Source of the DNA: a virus
Direction: 5' to 3' (one strand)
DNA: 15,792 nucleotides
UHGV virus genome: UHGV-1805464
The first letter of the stretch is position 1. The number at the start of each line of letters is the position of its first letter. Positions 1 to 15,792 of the stretch are shown here, piece by piece. The notes under the pieces are model-generated. The model made no database searches, was not told the DNA's origin, and was given only the letters and a program-made list of their open reading frames with translations. Made by a program: the position numbers and the translations under genes.

Positions 1-309
1 GTTCGCCCGATGTACAGCCTGACGAAAGATGGCTGGATCATGGTTGTGATGGGGTTCACCGGGAAAGCTGCTGCGGCAATCAAGGAGAGCTATATCGCAG
101 CATTCAACTGGATGGCAGAGCAACTGAGCCGCCGCATGGCAATTGGCGAAGAAATGCAGCACCGCTACGCCATCAAAGAAACACGCTCAAAGCTGAAAGG
201 TACGATCGGCAGTCGGTTAATGAACGAACGGAAGAAAGAGAAGCGTGTCCTGGCTGTCGAGCATGAATACATCTTGCAGGTGACACAGCCTGAACTGCTG
301 ATTAATTGA
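1..309 (+). CDS. phage regulatory protein, Rha/antirepressor-like C-terminal region (5'-partial, runs off the window start)
   Basis: Frame is open from nt 1 (no stop in 1-9) to TGA at 307-309. The motif GFTGKAAAAIKESYIAAFNWMAEQ resembles the C-terminal segment of Rha/Ant-type phage regulatory proteins (recalled, not searched). It lies upstream of the terminase genes, as in P22-like phages. Confidence 0.4.
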   Translation, partial: VRPMYSLTKDGWIMVVMGFTGKAAAAIKESYIAAFNWMAEQLSRRMAIGEEMQHRYAIKETRSKLKGTIGSRLMNERKKEKRVLAVEHEYILQVTQPELLIN

Positions 310-609
310 AGATGTCATTACAAAGCCCATCTACGGGTGGGCTTGATAATGAAACCGGAGTTAATTTCTGGTCACTAATTAACGGCAGTACAGCGAAACA
401 ACCCAAGCCAGTAAGTGGGGAAATAACACTGGCAGCCACTGAAAGATGAACCTCCAGCCTTATGGCAAAAAAGATTCTTTGTGGTGGCGGACTGATGGAA
501 AGACATCGGTTATTGCAGAGACCATTCAATGAGTGGTCTCGACAATGGCTTATACCCTACACGGGATAACTTAACTGATATCCCTTTTAACGGATAAACG
601 GAGCCAACA

Positions 610-1292: not shown

Positions 1293-2752
1293 TGTCGTCA
1301 GAATTCGAGGCAATGCTTGCCGATGATATGGGGCGATTCTTTTACGATCCGCTTGGCTTCGTTATGTATGCGTTTGATTGGGGAACTGGTGAGCTTGAGG
1401 GCTTTGACGGACCCGATGAATGGCAGAAAGAGTTTCTGACAGATTGGGGAGACGCAATCAGGACTAATAACTTCGACGGTGTTAAACCTGTTGAAGCCTA
1501 TCGTTGCGCTACCAGCTCTGGTCACGGTATCGGTAAAAGTGCTCTAACTGCCTGGGTCATTCTGTACATCCTCAGCACTCGTCCTTTCTGCAAGGGCGTC
1601 GTGACAGCCAATACCTCTGAACAGCTTCGCACCAAAACATGGGGCGAGCTGGGCAAGTGGAAGAAGCGGTGCATCACTGGTCACTGGTTTGAGTACAACA
1701 ACGGCAAAGGCAACATGAACATCTACCATGTGGATCACATGGAATCATGGCGCTGTGACGGCCAGACGTGTCGGGAAGAGAACAGCGAGTCATTTGCTGG
1801 CCTGCATGCAGCTAACTCAAGCCCGTTCTACATCTTCGATGAAGCCTCAGCGGTTCCTGACAAAATTTGGGAAGTAGCAGAGGGCGGCCTTACTGACGGC
1901 GAGCCTTTCTGGTTTGCATTTGGGAACCCGACCCGTAACACCGGTCGATTCCGAGAGTGCTTCCGCAAGTTCAAACACCGATGGCGTCGACGTCAAATTG
2001 ATAGCCGCCTGGCAAAGATGACCAACAAAGAGCTCATCGAAGAGTGGCGCAAGGATTACGGTGAAGACAGCGACTTCTTTAAAGTACGTGTTCGCGGTCT
2101 ATTCCCATCGACATCAGAAGTCCAGTTCATACCTCAGGCATATGTGGATGAGGCCATGTCTCGCACGCTTGAGCCCGGGTCTTACACATTCGCATCCAAA
2201 ATAATCGGCGTTGACCCTGCTTACACAGGTAGTGATGAGGCATCAATTTACCTTCGCCAGGGTCTTCATGCGCGCCTGCTTGGCACCTACCCGAAAACAG
2301 ATGACGACGTTAAGTTCGCGCAAATCGTCGCAGGATTTGAGGATGAGCATAAGGCAGATGCAGTGTTCATAGACTTCGGGTATGGCACCGGAATTCACTC
2401 AATAGGTAGGTCGTGGGGAAGGAAGTGGCAGCTGGTTAACTTTGGGGGTGAATCCAAAGACCCCGGCATGCTGAACAAGCGCGGTGAGATGTGGAACTCA
2501 ATGAAGTCATGGCTCAAAGAAGGGGGAAGTATCGATGATCAGCAAACAGCTGACGAAATCGTTGCTCCTGAGTACAGGGTTAAGCTCGATGGGCGCATCG
2601 TCCTTGAGGCCAAAGAGGACATGAAGCGCCGTGGGGTTCCTTCACCAAACCGCGCTGATGCGTTAGCCCTGACGTTTGCATTCCCGGTAGTCAAAAACAA
2701 ACCAACTAAGCCATTACCGGCTCCAATTCGTCCAATTTCCAGAGGTAGATAA
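1292..2752 (+). CDS. terL: terminase large subunit (TerL), ATPase plus nuclease
   Basis: 486 aa. Walker A-like SGHGIGKSA, Walker B-like FYIFDEAS, and a C-terminal acidic nuclease-type motif [21 protein letters not shown] Shine-Dalgarno upstream. The start overlaps the terS stop and the stop overlaps the portal start (TAATG at 2750-2754). Confidence 0.9.
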
Positions 2753-11202: not shown

Positions 11203-12558
11203 ATGGCTACTTGGCAAGGAACAAACGGCGGATTGTTGGCTGGTATCGGCGGCGTAAACTCAAACGCTCCGAGCGTAAATGACATCGGCAATACGCTTCA
11301 GCTTATCAGGCAGAACAATGATATTGAGCGTTCAGGCGCTAACAATGTTGGGCTGACTGCTTTGCAAGGTCTTTCAGGTATTGCGGGTGTTTTTCAGCAG
11401 GAAAAGCAGGCTCAGCGGCAGAAAGAATTTCAGCAGGCGTACGCTAATGCTTATGCGTCTGGTGATCGCGGTGCTTTGCGTCAGTTGGCTACTCAATATC
11501 CAGACCAGATTGAATCCGTTCGTAAAGGCATGGGATTCATTGATGAAGAGCAGCGTAATTCTATCGGCACCTTAGCGGCTGGCGCACGCCTTGCGTCATC
11601 GTCTCCAGAAGCAATGCAATCATGGCTGCAAAACAACGCCAAGGAACTGACTCGCGTCGGTGTTGACCCTAATAACGTTGCTCAGATGTATCAGCAGAAC
11701 CCTTCAGGGTTTGGTGAGTTTGTTGATCACCTTGGGATGGCTGCTCTCGGTCCGATTGACTACTTCAATGTTCAGGACAAGATGGCTGGTCGTGAGATTG
11801 ACCGAGGCAGGCTGGCAGAGACAATCCGCAGCAATCAGGCCGGAGAGGCGCTAACAGCACGAGGTCAGAACATCACGATGCGCGGGCAGGATTTGGCAAT
11901 GCAGCGAGCGTCAACAAGAGGAACTGCTGGGAATGATGAGCGTACAGTTCAGTTATCAGATGGCAGAACTGTAACTGTCGGCGGGAAGCTTCATGGCGCT
12001 GGGGCTAATGCGTTCTACGAAGGCATCGACAACGAGGGGAATATGGTTCGCGTTCCTGCCAGTTCAATCGCAGCGCCTGCAACATCGTCTGCATCAGCAC
12101 AAAACTATGCCATGAAGAAGGATATCGACGCGATCGCAAATGCAGACGCTTCTGCTCTCGATTTCATGACAGGAATGACAGGCGGTGCAGGTAATCCAGC
12201 AATTGGTGCTGATGTTCGCAGCCGATTAACAGGAAAAGAGCAGCGCCAGTTATATAACTCAGCACAACGGATTCAGGGCAGAATGCAGAATCAGGGTGTG
12301 GCGGCAGCAAGGGACATGGGTGCCAGTGGTATTAACACTGTTGCAGAAGCGAAGATGTATTTTCAGGGGATGCCGCAGGTTGACTATTCAAGCCCGGAGG
12401 CTATGCAGCAGTCGATTCGTGAGATTCAGGAATACACCAACAATTACAACCAACAATATAACGTTAATGTTGGTAAATCTCAGCGGCATCAATCTCAACC
12501 TGCACAGGTATCACAGCCAGCAGCCAGCAGTAACTTTTCTTCACTATGGGGTGATTAA
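11203..12558 (+). CDS. ejection protein, P22 gp20-like
   Basis: 451 aa (P22 gp20 is about 471 aa). AAGGGG Shine-Dalgarno 5 nt upstream of the ATG. It sits between the gp7-like and gp16-like genes; stop overlaps the gp16 start (TAATG). Confidence 0.75.
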
Positions 12559-14555
12559 TGGCTAAAGCATGGAAAGATGTTATCGCCTCTCCACAGTATC
12601 AGGCGTTAGCACCAGAACAAAAAGCGCAGGCTCAGGAGCAATACTTCAATGAAGTCGTGGCCCCGCAAGCCGGAGAAAATGCAGAGCAGGCTAAGCAAGC
12701 TTTCTATGCTACCTATCCATTGCCATCTGTGCAGCCAGTGGAGACACAACAACCAGAAGCACAGCAACAACCACAGCAAAGTGGGTTTATGTCTGATCTT
12801 GGTGAAGCAGTAAAAGAGACTGGTCGTGGACTGGTGCAGGCTGGCGTGAACGTGGCAAACATACCTGCATCAGTTGCCGATGCTGTAACAAGCGCGGCGG
12901 CATGGGCTGGCGGTAAACTCGGCATTGGCGATGGTACATATCAACCAGCGCCACGAGTAACAACGCAGGGGTTAGAGCAGGACTTTGGTCTTCAGCAAGG
13001 CGCGCTCACTCCACAAACGACAGAGGGAAGGGTATTTGCTGAAGCATTGCCTTACCTCACTCCTGCTGGCGTTGAGAGAGCGGCAGCACAGGCACCAACA
13101 CTTGCTGGTCGAATTGCTCAGGGGGCAACACGACTTCTCGCAGAAAACGCAGTTGGATCACTTGCTGCAAATAGTGCGAAAGATGATGCGGAAGCACTCG
13201 CCACCGATTTAGGCGTTGGTGTGCTGGCTGGCGGTGCTATTAACGCTGCCGGACGTGGATTAGGTGCTGCTTATCGTGGCGTTCGTGGTGCTATTGCGCC
13301 AGAAGCGCAGCAGGCTATCAGATTTGCAGAGCGTGAAGGAGTTCCTCTGCACACCACAGACCTGTTACAGCCTACTTCCCGCGTCGGGAAAATGGCGCAG
13401 ACTACAGCAGAAAATATCCCCCTGGCTGGCACAAGCGGAATGAGAGCAACGCAACAGGAAGCGAGAAGCCAGTTGGTGCAGAGATTTGCTGATAAATTCG
13501 GTGAGTATGATCCAGCTGTTGTTATTGACAGCCTTAAAGCGAAAACATCAGGAATTCGTCGTGCTGCAGGGAACCGTCTTGAGCAGGTTCAGAATGCTAT
13601 GGCTGGAGTAAACATTCAGCCTGCGCGAGCAATTCAGCAGATTGATACAGAAATATCTAACCTGCAGAAGCTTGGTAAGGTTGCTGATAACGAGACTATT
13701 TCAAAACTTCAGTCATATCGTGATGAGCTTGTTCGCAATGCTGGTCCTGATGGTCCGGTAAATCTGGATCTGAAGCAATTAAGCGACCTGCGCAGCCAGT
13801 TCAGAATGGACGTGAAGGGTGAGCGACCAGTGTTACCAAACCGTTCCGATGCCGCCATTCAGCGCGTTTACAAGGCGATGACAGACGATATCAATGGTGC
13901 CATTGGTCAGAATCTTGGCAACGATACTCTCCGTAAATATCAGCAGGCCAATGCCGTCTACGCTGACGAAGCGGCGAAACTAAAGAATACCAGGCTGAAG
14001 AATGTTCTCATGAAAGGCGACCTGACGCCGGAAGTTGTCAACAACATACTATTCAGCAAGAACAAATCTGAAATTAAGGCTCTGTATAACTCAGTTGGTC
14101 GTGTTGGTAGGGTGCAAATGCGCAATGGCATCATTGGAAAGGCGATGGAGAAATCAGGTGGTTCCCCTGACCAGTTCCTTCGGCAGCTTAACATCATGCA
14201 AAACCAGACTGGAATAATATTTAAGGGGCAGGATGCTGCTTATCTGAAAGGATTGAAAAACTACCTGCAATCCACGCAGCAGGCTGCAAAATCGGCAGTA
14301 ACAACACCAACAGGGCAGCAAACCATCCCGTTCATTATCGGATATGGGACGGCAATGAACCCGGCGACAACTGGCGCAGCGGTAAGCTACGGACTTCTTA
14401 CTCGCGCCTATGAGAGCGAGCCATTCAGAAATGCAATGCTCCGAATGGCAAACACCCCACGCGGATCAACAGCGTTTGAGAAAGCCATGCAGCAGGCGCA
14501 AAAGGCCATTAACGCCCTGACTCAAGGTGCCAAGTCTGATGCGTTGTCAGAATAG
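12558..14555 (+). CDS. ejection protein, P22 gp16-like
   Basis: 665 aa, the last large gene of the structural block before the immI-like region (P22 gp16 is about 609 aa). GGGGTGA Shine-Dalgarno upstream. The call rests on synteny and size; ejection proteins are known to be variable. Confidence 0.75.
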   Translation: MAKAWKDVIASPQYQALAPEQKAQAQEQYFNEVVAPQAGENAEQAKQAFYATYPLPSVQPVETQQPEAQQQPQQSGFMSDLGEAVKETGRGLVQAGVNVANIPASVADAVTSAAAWAGGKLGIGDGTYQPAPRVTTQGLEQDFGLQQGALTPQTTEGRVFAEALPYLTPAGVERAAAQAPTLAGRIAQGATRLLAENAVGSLAANSAKDDAEALATDLGVGVLAGGAINAAGRGLGAAYRGVRGAIAPEAQQAIRFAEREGVPLHTTDLLQPTSRVGKMAQTTAENIPLAGTSGMRATQQEARSQLVQRFADKFGEYDPAVVIDSLKAKTSGIRRAAGNRLEQVQNAMAGVNIQPARAIQQIDTEISNLQKLGKVADNETISKLQSYRDELVRNAGPDGPVNLDLKQLSDLRSQFRMDVKGERPVLPNRSDAAIQRVYKAMTDDINGAIGQNLGNDTLRKYQQANAVYADEAAKLKNTRLKNVLMKGDLTPEVVNNILFSKNKSEIKALYNSVGRVGRVQMRNGIIGKAMEKSGGSPDQFLRQLNIMQNQTGIIFKGQDAAYLKGLKNYLQSTQQAAKSAVTTPTGQQTIPFIIGYGTAMNPATTGAAVSYGLLTRAYESEPFRNAMLRMANTPRGSTAFEKAMQQAQKAINALTQGAKSDALSE

Positions 14556-14624
14556 CTTCGCAAACACCAGGAACGTGCAAAAACCAAATATGTAGAACGC
14601 AATATTCAGCATATCTCTTTGCAT
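14547..14624 (-). CDS. possible 25-aa hydrophobic membrane peptide (MQRDMLNIAFYIFGFCTFLVFAKLF)
   Basis: Minus-strand ATG at 14624-14622 is preceded by a strong GGAGGA Shine-Dalgarno (14633-14628); stop TGA is at 14549-14547. It lies 20 nt downstream of mnt on the same strand, and its last 9 nt overlap the gp16 3' end convergently. It is too short for the ORF track, so it is predicted only from a manual read. Confidence 0.25.
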   Translation of the reverse strand: MQRDMLNIAFYIFGFCTFLVFAKLF

Positions 14625-14644
14625 AAATCCTCCGTAACTGATAG

Positions 14645-14905
14645 TTAGCTGCTGTCTTTTTTATATAGCTCCTTGAGCGTATCAAAGACAATTTTCTTAA
14701 CCATCTCAGATTGTTGTTCTGCCATACGCTCTGCATCGTCAATGTAAACAGATGCAGAGCTTTGTTTAGCCAATGATTCTTCAATCGCTGCAATTATCTC
14801 TGAGTTCAGCGACCTGTTATTCATCTTCGCACGCTGTTTAATTTTCGCGTGAAGTTCATGCGGAAGTCTCAAGTGAAACTGCGCCTCGTCGTATTTGCTG
14901 TACAT
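14645..14905 (-). CDS. mnt: Mnt-like ribbon-helix-helix repressor (Arc/MetJ family)
   Basis: 86 aa from the minus-strand ATG at 14905-14903: MYSKYDEAQFHLRLPHELHAKIKQRAKMNNRSLNSEIIAAIEESL...DAERMAEQQSEMVKKIVFDTLKELYKKDSS. The C-terminal half closely matches recalled P22 Mnt (DAERLADEQSELVKKMVFDTLKDLYKK) and the N-terminal RHH segment is related. The 219-aa ORF-track call is an artefactual upstream extension. Confidence 0.85.
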   Translation of the reverse strand: MYSKYDEAQFHLRLPHELHAKIKQRAKMNNRSLNSEIIAAIEESLAKQSSASVYIDDAERMAEQQSEMVKKIVFDTLKELYKKDSS

Positions 14906-15040
14906 CCTTGATGCCTCACCAGTTGGGTGGAATGGCATCGTAAAACCTACTGTACAAATCAACAATCGCACCGTTTCGGTATGTAACAAATTCCAACCGT
15001 AGCCATGCTGCGGCGATTCCTTGTATCTGGAGCAAATTAA
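14906..15040. promoter_or_regulatory. divergent control region between mnt and the tailspike gene (candidate promoters and Mnt operator)
   Basis: 135-bp AT-richer intergenic spacer between the divergent mnt (-) and tailspike (+) starts. It contains an imperfect inverted repeat, CACCAGTTGGGTG, at about 14917-14929 next to the mnt start. GGAG (15025-15028) lies about 12 nt upstream of the tailspike ATG. No promoter hexamers could be assigned confidently. Confidence 0.35.
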
Positions 15041-15679
15041 ATGACAGACATTACAGCCAATGTGATTGTATCTATGCCTTCGCAACTCTTCACTATGGCT
15101 CGTTCTTTTAAAGCCGTAGCCAATGGAAAAATTTATATCGGTAAAATTGACACTGACCCGGTAAATCCTGAAAACCAGATTCGGGTTTATGTGGAAAACG
15201 AAGACGGTTCTCACGTTCCTGTTTCGCAACCAATTATCATTAACGCTGCTGGTTATCCTGTATATAACGGGCAGATTGCCAAGTTCGTAACTGTGCAAGG
15301 CCATTCTATGGCTGTTTATGATGCATACGGTGCTCAGCAGTTTTATTTTCCGAATGTTCTGAAGTACGATCCTGACAGATTGCGACAGGATTTAGCGCTT
15401 CCAACAGGCGCTGAGCTTGTAGGCGTGCAACCACAAGGAAATCTTTCGCAAGTCATTCAGTTTGTATCTCCAGAGCAGTTTGGCGCCATCGGAGATGGTA
15501 CGGTTCATCCATTATCTGAGCGTTATGCGACTCTTGCAGCAGCGCAGGCTGTATACCCATTCGTAACATCTCTGACCCAGACAATTGACTGGGCTGCATG
15601 CCAGTTGGCAGAAAACCTTAACAGGAAGGTTAGGCCCATTCATGTTGCCAAGTTTAAAAAATATCACCTTGGTGACTAA
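15041..15679 (+). CDS. tailspike protein, truncated: P22 gp9-type head-binding N-terminal domain plus the start of a receptor-binding domain (212 aa)
   Basis: [11 protein letters not shown]...[27 protein letters not shown]...VENEDGSHV...IINAAG...[13 protein letters not shown]...NVLKYDPD matches the recalled P22 tailspike N-terminal domain. Residues around 150-195 ([29 protein letters not shown]...IDWAACQ) look like the beginning of a beta-helix receptor-binding domain, but the frame stops at TAA 15677-15679. Confidence 0.8.
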
Positions 15680-15681
15680 TG

Positions 15682-15713
15682 CCAGTCAGTTAAGCAACTG
15701 ACTGGCTCTTTTT
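15682..15713 (+). terminator. strong intrinsic terminator 2 nt after the tailspike stop
   Basis: Perfect 10-bp stem CCAGTCAGTT (15682-15691) / AACTGACTGG (15696-15705) with a 4-nt loop AAGC, followed by CTC and a T5 run (15709-15713). Confidence 0.8.
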
Positions 15714-15792
15714 CGGGGCTGTGGGGTATTTCCAGGGCCTCTCCTTTACCACTCTCGGGAAGGCCCTTTCCCTTCTTGTCGGTAATTTCACA

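Follow-up and report, generated by a model that had tools for sequence, protein, structure and literature searches.

We examined the UHGV virus genome UHGV-1805464, a stretch of 15,792 nt (the window) that represents the late-operon end of a P22-like E. coli prophage, and found that it very probably carries a gene for a tiny membrane peptide. The open reading frame (ORF) lies on the minus strand at 14547..14624, begins with the ATG at 14624-14622, and encodes the 25-aa peptide MQRDMLNIAFYIFGFCTFLVFAKLF followed by a TGA stop. A Shine-Dalgarno (SD) sequence, GGAGGA, is located at 14628..14633 on the same strand and is separated from the ATG by a 3-nt spacer (TTT). Upstream, at 14645..14905 on the minus strand, we found an mnt-like repressor gene of 86 aa (Pfam Repressor_Mnt 2e-15, Arc 6.5e-15), whose homologue is labelled Arc family DNA-binding protein in RefSeq. 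Its TAA stop at 14647-14645 leaves a gap of 20 nt to the ORF. At its other end, the ORF meets the gene for the DNA-ejection protein gp16 (12558..14555, plus strand, 665 aa, Sf6 gene 13 type) tail to tail, and the two overlap by 9 nt (14547..14555, both strands). The homologues of genes 16 and 9 lie on either side of the mini-gene, which runs against the direction of the late operon. An earlier reading made from the letters of this DNA (hereafter the sequence-only reading) had described the ORF, the GGAGGA 3 nt before its ATG and the 20-nt distance to the mnt stop, and all three were recovered at the same positions.

The peptide consists of a polar N-terminus (MQRD) and a hydrophobic helix of about 17-19 residues. 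Residues 5-21 form a 17-residue segment with a mean Kyte-Doolittle value of 2.06 and a summed Hessa dG of about -0.3 kcal/mol, both obtained from simple scales and not from a trained predictor. This hydropathy is sufficient for a single predicted transmembrane helix, in line with what the sequence-only reading had claimed. The translation start of this single sequence is not beyond chance, as GGAGG-N4-ATG was seen once in the window against 0.47 expected and at least one match occurred in 69 of 200 shuffles. It is the comparative evidence that raises the signal above chance.

To obtain a sample that was unbiased towards the ORF, relatives were gathered with the C-terminal 149 aa of gp16 and not with the ORF itself. 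The first set, of the Sf6 type, contained 88 sequences (the 80 closest viral contigs, phage records and the window), and the second gp16-anchored set contained 86 loci of the L/BTP1 type. Both include related genomes, so that the p-values given below are indicative. In the Sf6-type set, the ORF was intact in 88/88 sequences, with ATG and stop kept and zero indels, and was present in 36 distinct DNA versions encoding 29 distinct peptides. At the same site, a homologous ORF of 23 codons is present in phages with only 71-76% identity in the gp16 C-terminus. This shorter ORF was intact in 86/86 L/BTP1-type loci, again with zero indels, in 47 distinct DNA versions. Its carriers are L, ST64T-like phages, BTP1, MG40, S9-5, HF4s and Klebsiella phage phiKp_30, and MNRDLLNFAFLIFGIVVGRLLFA and MERDLLNFVFLIFGLVVGKLLFA are examples of the 23-aa peptides.

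Taken together, the frame, start, stop and amino-acid motif were kept in all 174 gp16-anchored loci despite heavy DNA divergence between the two subfamilies. The family consensus is M-x-R-D-L-L-N-x-A-F-x-I-F-G, followed by a hydrophobic tail, with a total length of 23-25 residues. About 120 further loci found by pattern yielded a single stop loss (locus L284). Frameshifts or stops in related phages, which the sequence-only reading had named as the pattern that would count against a gene, therefore came to one lost stop in about 290 loci.

The variation within the ORF also shows a coding signature. Diversity at codon positions 1, 2 and 3 of the Sf6-type ORF was 0.081, 0.064 and 0.155, and the third-position value was about that of gp16 (0.116). 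The ratio of nonsynonymous to synonymous diversity (pN/pS) was 0.35 in this set, with a synonymous excess at a binomial p=0.012. In the L-type set, synonymous sites were near saturation (pS 0.69), while pN was 0.158 and pN/pS was 0.23. There, codon position 3 held 45 of the 73 site-allele variants, and the synonymous excess was stronger (p=2e-7, binomial). The alternative frames were closed or had a pN/pS above 1.3, with the sole exception of a wobble-sharing antisense frame at 0.39. This exception, plus-strand frame 1 of the L-type loci, was considered as a coding frame and rejected as a mirror of the ORF: it is open in the L type, has no start and no SD, and is closed in the Sf6 type. The conservation check that the sequence-only reading had proposed, of the frame and of synonymous versus nonsynonymous changes, thus came out on the side of a small hydrophobic protein gene, with the frame held throughout and synonymous changes in excess.

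The overlap with gp16 offers an additional line of evidence. The Ser664 codon of gp16, TCA, reads on the opposite strand as the TGA stop of the peptide. Among Sf6-type tails, this codon was TCA in 63/63 distinct sequences, compared with 20% of Ser codons elsewhere in the gene. In L-type tails, the matching codon is a Leu codon and was TTA or CTA in 58/58 distinct sequences, compared with 20% elsewhere; TTA and CTA are the only Leu codons that give a stop on the opposite strand. The gp16 Ala, Ser and stop codons beside the frozen codon vary freely. This pattern indicates that the stop codon of the peptide is under selection. The sequence-only reading had noted that the two messages would be antisense to each other over the overlap. 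The 9-nt overlap is real, and its main visible consequence is that one gp16 codon is constrained to supply the peptide's stop.

Two loci depart from this arrangement. In L284 (about 225..383), the TGA of the mini-gene has become AGA through a TCA to TCT change that is synonymous in gp16, and the ORF grows to 52 codons, antisense into gp16. Locus L121 (about 1948..1980) is a seeming exception because its gp16 stop has mutated to AAG; gp16 gains 10 codons over the 3' end of the mini-gene, which itself is intact. From the comparative data, we conclude with high confidence that the ORF is a real protein-coding gene.

We also compared the region upstream of the start codon. DNA homology of the window to Sf6, Gally, VSe13, 720R6 and 683R2 ends at the ATG (window 14625), and homology to Sf101-like mnt modules begins at 14637. 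Three unrelated modules precede the ATG among relatives. The first is mnt, found in the window, IME10 and many E. coli prophages. The second is a gene of about 161 codons (171 as annotated in Gally) that belongs to phrog_6067 and is present in Gally, VSe13 and 720R6. We considered this gene as a sieA homologue and rejected it, as it is a phrog_6067 member and gave no BLASTP alignment to SieA. The third is a plain divergent intergenic region before the tailspike gene, present in Sf6, BTP1, MG40 and HF4s. A module boundary thus coincides with the start codon, which is what one would expect of a gene. Conservation of the SD was a further check proposed by the sequence-only reading. A core of at least 4 nt at a spacing of 4-8 was found in 125/174 loci (GGAGG at spacing 4 in 80 of them), including BTP1, MG40 and HF4s, which have no upstream gene, while the remaining 49 lack a recognisable SD.

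A terminator scan found no terminator-like site between mnt and the ORF, nor after gp16. Thus, co-transcription with mnt, as suggested by the sequence-only reading, is plausible, with mnt directly upstream, and the mini-gene of this prophage is most likely transcribed together with it. The mnt gene of the window stands without arc or ant (14645..15040), as in phage L. It is a possibility that the main remaining role of this orphan mnt is to drive or regulate the downstream mini-gene.

In otherwise diverged phages without a co-oriented upstream gene, a -10-like hexamer (TATAAT, TATGAT, TATAGT, TAAAAT or TAATAT, with T1, A2 and T6 kept) lies 28-33 nt before the ATG. A direct repeat, TTGCGC-N4-TTGCRT, is present ahead of this box in all phages of this kind (BTP1 locus L091, 1833..1864, and equivalents), and no -35 was found at the standard spacing in BTP1, L or Sf6. 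The box could be a candidate promoter with a regulator-binding site. In phage L (locus L090, 1833..1849), a perfect palindrome, AGATCAAAGAATGATCT, precedes the mini-gene ATG by about 20 nt. It lies in the divergent region that separates the mini-gene from orf62 and looks like an operator.

RNA folding of both strands of 14530-14660 gave no structure signal (z-scores of -0.36 and -0.59), and Rfam returned nothing relevant at the locus. Inside gp16, a weak terminator-like hairpin with a T-run was found on the minus strand at 14255..14279, about 270 nt past the mini-gene stop, and it occurs at the same site in Sf6 (locus L001, 1416..1430). This hairpin is a possible candidate for the 3' end of the leftward transcript, which we propose tentatively. 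The 3' end of the BTP1 transcript STnc6030, described below, maps by homology about 20 nt beyond it, and no equivalent hairpin was detected in BTP1.

The mini-gene was found only at the 3' end of the Sf6/L type of gp16, and pattern scans hardly ever turned up the peptide outside this gp16 context. Members of the family come from E. coli, Shigella, Salmonella, Klebsiella, Citrobacter, Kluyvera, Atlantibacter, Pseudescherichia and Ca. Erwinia; a scan of species-representative genomes returned Escherichia species, Pseudescherichia, Citrobacter, Kluyvera, Atlantibacter and Ca. Erwinia dacicola. Over the 106 bases surrounding the ORF, the window matches E. coli strain G3/10 at 100% identity and strain W at 99.1%. 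A Sf6-type copy was found in 285 of 5426 complete E. coli genomes (about 5%). The ORF is annotated in none of the phage records that we checked (Sf6, IME10, Gally, VSe13, 720R6, 683R2, L, BTP1, MG40, HF4s, S9-5 and phiKp_30), nor in RefSeq E. coli genomes annotated with the Prokaryotic Genome Annotation Pipeline (PGAP). Searches of Pfam, NCBIfam and PHROGs with three family members gave no match at E<=10. The protein family is new and previously unannotated.

To predict the function of the peptide, we turned to Salmonella phage BTP1, where the homologous locus has been studied. Prophage BTP1 expresses STnc6030, a 786-nt RNA that is highly expressed in lysogens (mean TPM, transcripts per million, about 90) and lies antisense to the tailspike gene's start and to 320 nt at the 3' end of gp16 (PMC7067206). 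STnc6030 was called non-coding as no ORF of more than 60 aa was present (Owen 2020, PMC7067206). Its expression from a plasmid gave total immunity to BTP1, P22 was not excluded, and phage release from the resident prophage was not lowered, a paradox that the authors acknowledged (PMC7067206). Four single-nucleotide polymorphisms (SNPs) that escape STnc6030 lie at D23580 positions 404041-404078, which correspond to gp16 codons 583-595; they are outside the ORF and all are non-synonymous (PMC7067206). A review from 2025 still lists STnc6030 as an antisense RNA (PMC12197685). The paper on SieA (PMC10883804) makes no mention of STnc6030, and none of the papers that our literature search covered proposed a peptide from it.

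Using the published primers and coordinates, we placed the cloned STnc6030 fragment at 1431..2216 of the BTP1 locus L091. The 23-aa ORF MERDLLNFVFLIFGLVVGKLLFA, with GGAGGG, is located at nt 407-478 of the RNA and is the sole ATG ORF with an SD in the fragment. The window ORF occupies the homologous minus-strand position across the gp16 stop, and its peptide is about 55% identical to the BTP1 peptide, which has 23 aa compared with 25 aa in the window. The two loci differ in what precedes the ORF: the 5' 400 nt of STnc6030 are antisense to the tailspike gene, whereas mnt precedes the ORF in the window. The 5' two-thirds of STnc6030 are not conserved as a unit, being replaced by mnt in the window and by another gene in Gally, and the mini-ORF alone is constant. 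For STnc6030, expression in lysogens and phage-type-specific exclusion have been shown experimentally. The guess of the sequence-only reading that the peptide belongs to an exclusion class fits the published data on this orthologous locus (PMC7067206).

These observations led us to the following model. The mini-gene would share a transcript with the repressor gene mnt, which is expressed in lysogens, and its own GGAGGA would direct its translation. The peptide would then insert into the inner membrane of the lysogen and interfere with the glycine-rich C-terminal segment (about residues 593-605) of incoming gp16 of the same type. The formation or opening of the DNA conduit would be blocked, and DNA entry would fail, giving superinfection exclusion as with P22 SieA. 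Because the block would act at entry only, the resident prophage would still be inducible and still make phage, with its induction unaffected. The model would also account for the failure to exclude P22, whose gp16 is of a different type, for the fact that all escape mutations alter the gp16 protein, and for the constant association of the gene with one gp16 type. We lean slightly towards this full functional model, in which a membrane peptide expressed from the prophage blocks gp16-dependent DNA entry. A more specific claim is that the exclusion ascribed to STnc6030 is carried out by its encoded 23-aa peptide, and that its relatives, including the 25-aa E. coli version, are widespread tiny exclusion proteins, each welded to the gp16 allele it targets and acting on the same gp16 segment as SieA. 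We regard the case for this claim as evenly balanced. On the favoured reading, STnc6030 would be, at least partly, the mRNA of the orthologous peptide.

The proposed target segment, IIGYGTAMNPATT, comprises gp16 residues 593-605 and is encoded at 14334..14372 on the plus strand. It was located by alignment to the gp16 proteins of BTP1 and P22, and is equivalent to BTP1 gp16 583-595, where the escape SNPs cluster, and to P22 gp16 540-552. The alignment of the gp16 C-termini gave 36% identity to P22, and the invariant motifs TxTGQ and YGL..R.YES.P.RN flank the escape segment. Escape from SieA requires the gp16 change P546S, with or without G532W, together with changes in gp20 (Leavitt et al. 2024, PMC10883804). 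In our alignment, P546 of P22 falls inside the escape window, and G532 is 8 residues ahead of it. Variants of the peptide and of the gp16 target segment are associated with each other, but the two are 200 nt apart and linkage explains the association equally well.

The sequence-only reading had compared the position of the ORF with that of sieA in P22. This comparison was correct in that P22-like phages keep exclusion genes in this slot; however, P22 has sieA and orf59a between gene 16 and mnt, together with a differing gp16 C-terminus, and leaves no room for the ORF. Like P22 SieA (PHROG 7745), the mini-gene occupies the slot that is convergent with and adjoining gene 16. SieA, a protein of the inner membrane expressed from the prophage, blocks DNA injection, with escape mutations in gp16 (G532W, P546S) and gp20. 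Unlike the peptide, with its 23-25 aa and one helix, SieA has 164 aa and several membrane helices. Moreover, the exclusion exerted by SieA extends to phages of several gp16 types, and that of STnc6030 does not reach P22. No PHROG, Pfam or NCBIfam match was found for the peptides, and the motif FxRYPxEAxxFNK of SieA types A-C is absent from them. The window peptide gave a weak local match to the last SieA helix, LLSIAIFIFSVFIKIVFGR (locus L009, 1337..1831, residues 128-147), with a score of 35 that was reached in 0/500 shuffles, and the BTP1 peptide does not align in this way. We considered the peptide as a possible remnant or mimic of this helix; the similarity is either chance between hydrophobic helices or a distant relationship. 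On the favoured reading, the peptide would work most like SieA yet stand outside the SieA family, with no homology and about one seventh of the size.

In phages with other gp16 types, a membrane-protein gene abuts the same position, namely sieA in P22 and hkcB in HK620 and epsilon34. The HK620 gene hkcB (locus L315, 1314..1643) and epsilon34 gene 14 (locus L317, 659..982) encode an N-terminal hydrophobic helix followed by a long, charged, coiled-coil-like tail. Like the mini-gene, they lie on the minus strand, abut the stop of a different gp16 type, and are predicted to encode single-pass membrane proteins. Unlike the peptide, their products have 108-109 aa and a long coiled-coil-like soluble part, and are not homologous to it. 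Every gp16 type that we examined (P22, HK620 and the mini-gene type) has a membrane-protein gene welded to its gp16 3' end.

We then weighed other explanations. The first accepts a real peptide gene and assigns the exclusion by the BTP1 transcript to antisense RNA pairing, with the peptide having another membrane role, such as the modulation of a host membrane protein, or a minor share. Many bacterial small membrane proteins modulate larger membrane proteins, which fits such a role. The complementarity of STnc6030 to 320 nt of gp16 and the tailspike start, and the location of the escape SNPs within the complementary part, also speak for pairing (PMC7067206). On the other hand, a single mismatch in a perfect duplex of about 320 nt should hardly weaken it, and all four SNPs alter the protein, in the segment aligned to the site of the P22 SieA-escape mutation. 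An RNA antisense to the late mRNA should also cut the yield after induction, and no such reduction was seen (PMC7067206). Furthermore, it is the mini-ORF and not the 5' two-thirds of STnc6030 that is conserved. We consider RNA pairing as the mechanism unlikely, although it deserves serious attention.

The second explanation is a type I toxin restrained by an antisense RNA, here the convergent gp16/late transcript. Toxins of the Ibs, ShoB and TisB type have a similar size and hydrophobicity and overlap another transcript convergently. The mini-gene resembles them in its small size, in its hydrophobicity when grand averages of hydropathy (GRAVY) are compared, and in its convergent overlap. It also shares with these toxins, and with small membrane proteins such as KdpF and YohP, a length in the range of 19-30 aa, a single hydrophobic helix and the fate of being routinely missed by annotation. 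It has no sequence similarity to them, however, lacks an antitoxin RNA and gives no indication of being toxic, and its family is phage-borne and strictly linked to a gp16 type. We found no dedicated antitoxin RNA or promoter-like site on the plus strand near the ORF, and no Rfam match. The overlap with gp16 covers no more than 9-12 nt, and lysogens keep the late operon silent. In addition, the strong SD follows directly after a lysogen-expressed gene, with no structured leader, as the fold z-scores given above show. STnc6030 is abundant in BTP1 lysogens, and its constitutive expression from a plasmid is tolerated, with lawns growing and P22 plaquing normally (PMC7067206). The type I toxin class offered by the sequence-only reading was therefore set aside, and we judge this explanation highly improbable.

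Least probable of all is that the 70 nt after gp16 are conserved as a non-coding element (the 3' end of the late message, a recombination boundary or an RNA structure) with an incidental ORF: the Sf6-type hydrophobic core is well conserved at third positions too, conserved boundary sequences are known to mark module junctions in P22-like phages (with bsq1 and bsq2 of CUS-3 as annotated examples) and the SD and ATG are insignificant in a single sequence, but frame, start, stop and motif persist in 174/174 loci with pS at 0.69 within the L type, variation has a 3-nt periodicity in the ORF frame only, the stop is upheld through a constrained synonymous gp16 codon, and no RNA structure signal, terminator or Rfam family was found.

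Several points weigh against the favoured reading of a peptide that blocks gp16-dependent entry. The translation and function of every family member rest on inference. Exclusion was measured on the 786-nt STnc6030 fragment and not on the ORF alone, and the escape SNPs fall where gp16 and the transcript are complementary, which the antisense model of the authors would predict as well. It is possible that an RNA mechanism, or a contribution of the antisense part, accounts for exclusion by STnc6030. The function in the window is extrapolated from the BTP1 peptide, with which the window peptide shares only about 55% identity. In the Sf6-type set, purifying selection is weaker (pN/pS 0.35, p=0.012) and residues 2-9 vary. 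The 49 of 174 loci without a recognisable SD belong to the Gally and Sf6 classes, and the scan upstream of the ORF in BTP1, L and Sf6 revealed no promoter with two canonical hexamers. According to classical genetics, phage L has no known exclusion genes (PMC8022706); a test with P22 would miss a block that is specific for a gp16 type. Finally, the tailspike gene of this prophage is disrupted by an element of the insertion sequence family IS4, and the locus may be decaying here.

If the favoured reading is true, the model phages Sf6, L, ST64T, BTP1 and MG40 would have an extra gene, in an interval between gene 16 and gene 9 that has been described as empty or without exclusion genes. A published phage regulatory RNA would be reclassified as an mRNA, which would solve the paradox, raised by the authors, that the resident prophage is unharmed by the antisense exclusion factor it makes. 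The DNA-entry machinery of podoviruses would then have a shared vulnerability in a short segment of the gp16 C-terminus, which two unrelated exclusion proteins attack. The frequency of the Sf6-type copy among complete E. coli genomes would matter for selecting therapeutic phages and for resistance conferred by prophages. It would also show once more that the length cut-offs of annotation hide functional phage genes.

Beyond the family, Proteus phage Brookers, whose gp16 is 60% identical, has at this place a terminator-like hairpin, recognised by eye only, and a gene annotated as a putative lipoprotein. At the other end of the window (15041..15792), the tailspike gene is cut after 212 codons, and from about 15653 the DNA matches the end of an IS4-family element that is common in E. 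coli genomes. Because its tailspike is truncated by this element, the prophage is probably defective for the production of infectious particles. Just past the truncated tailspike stop (about 15682..15713), a hairpin followed by a T-run was recognised by eye.

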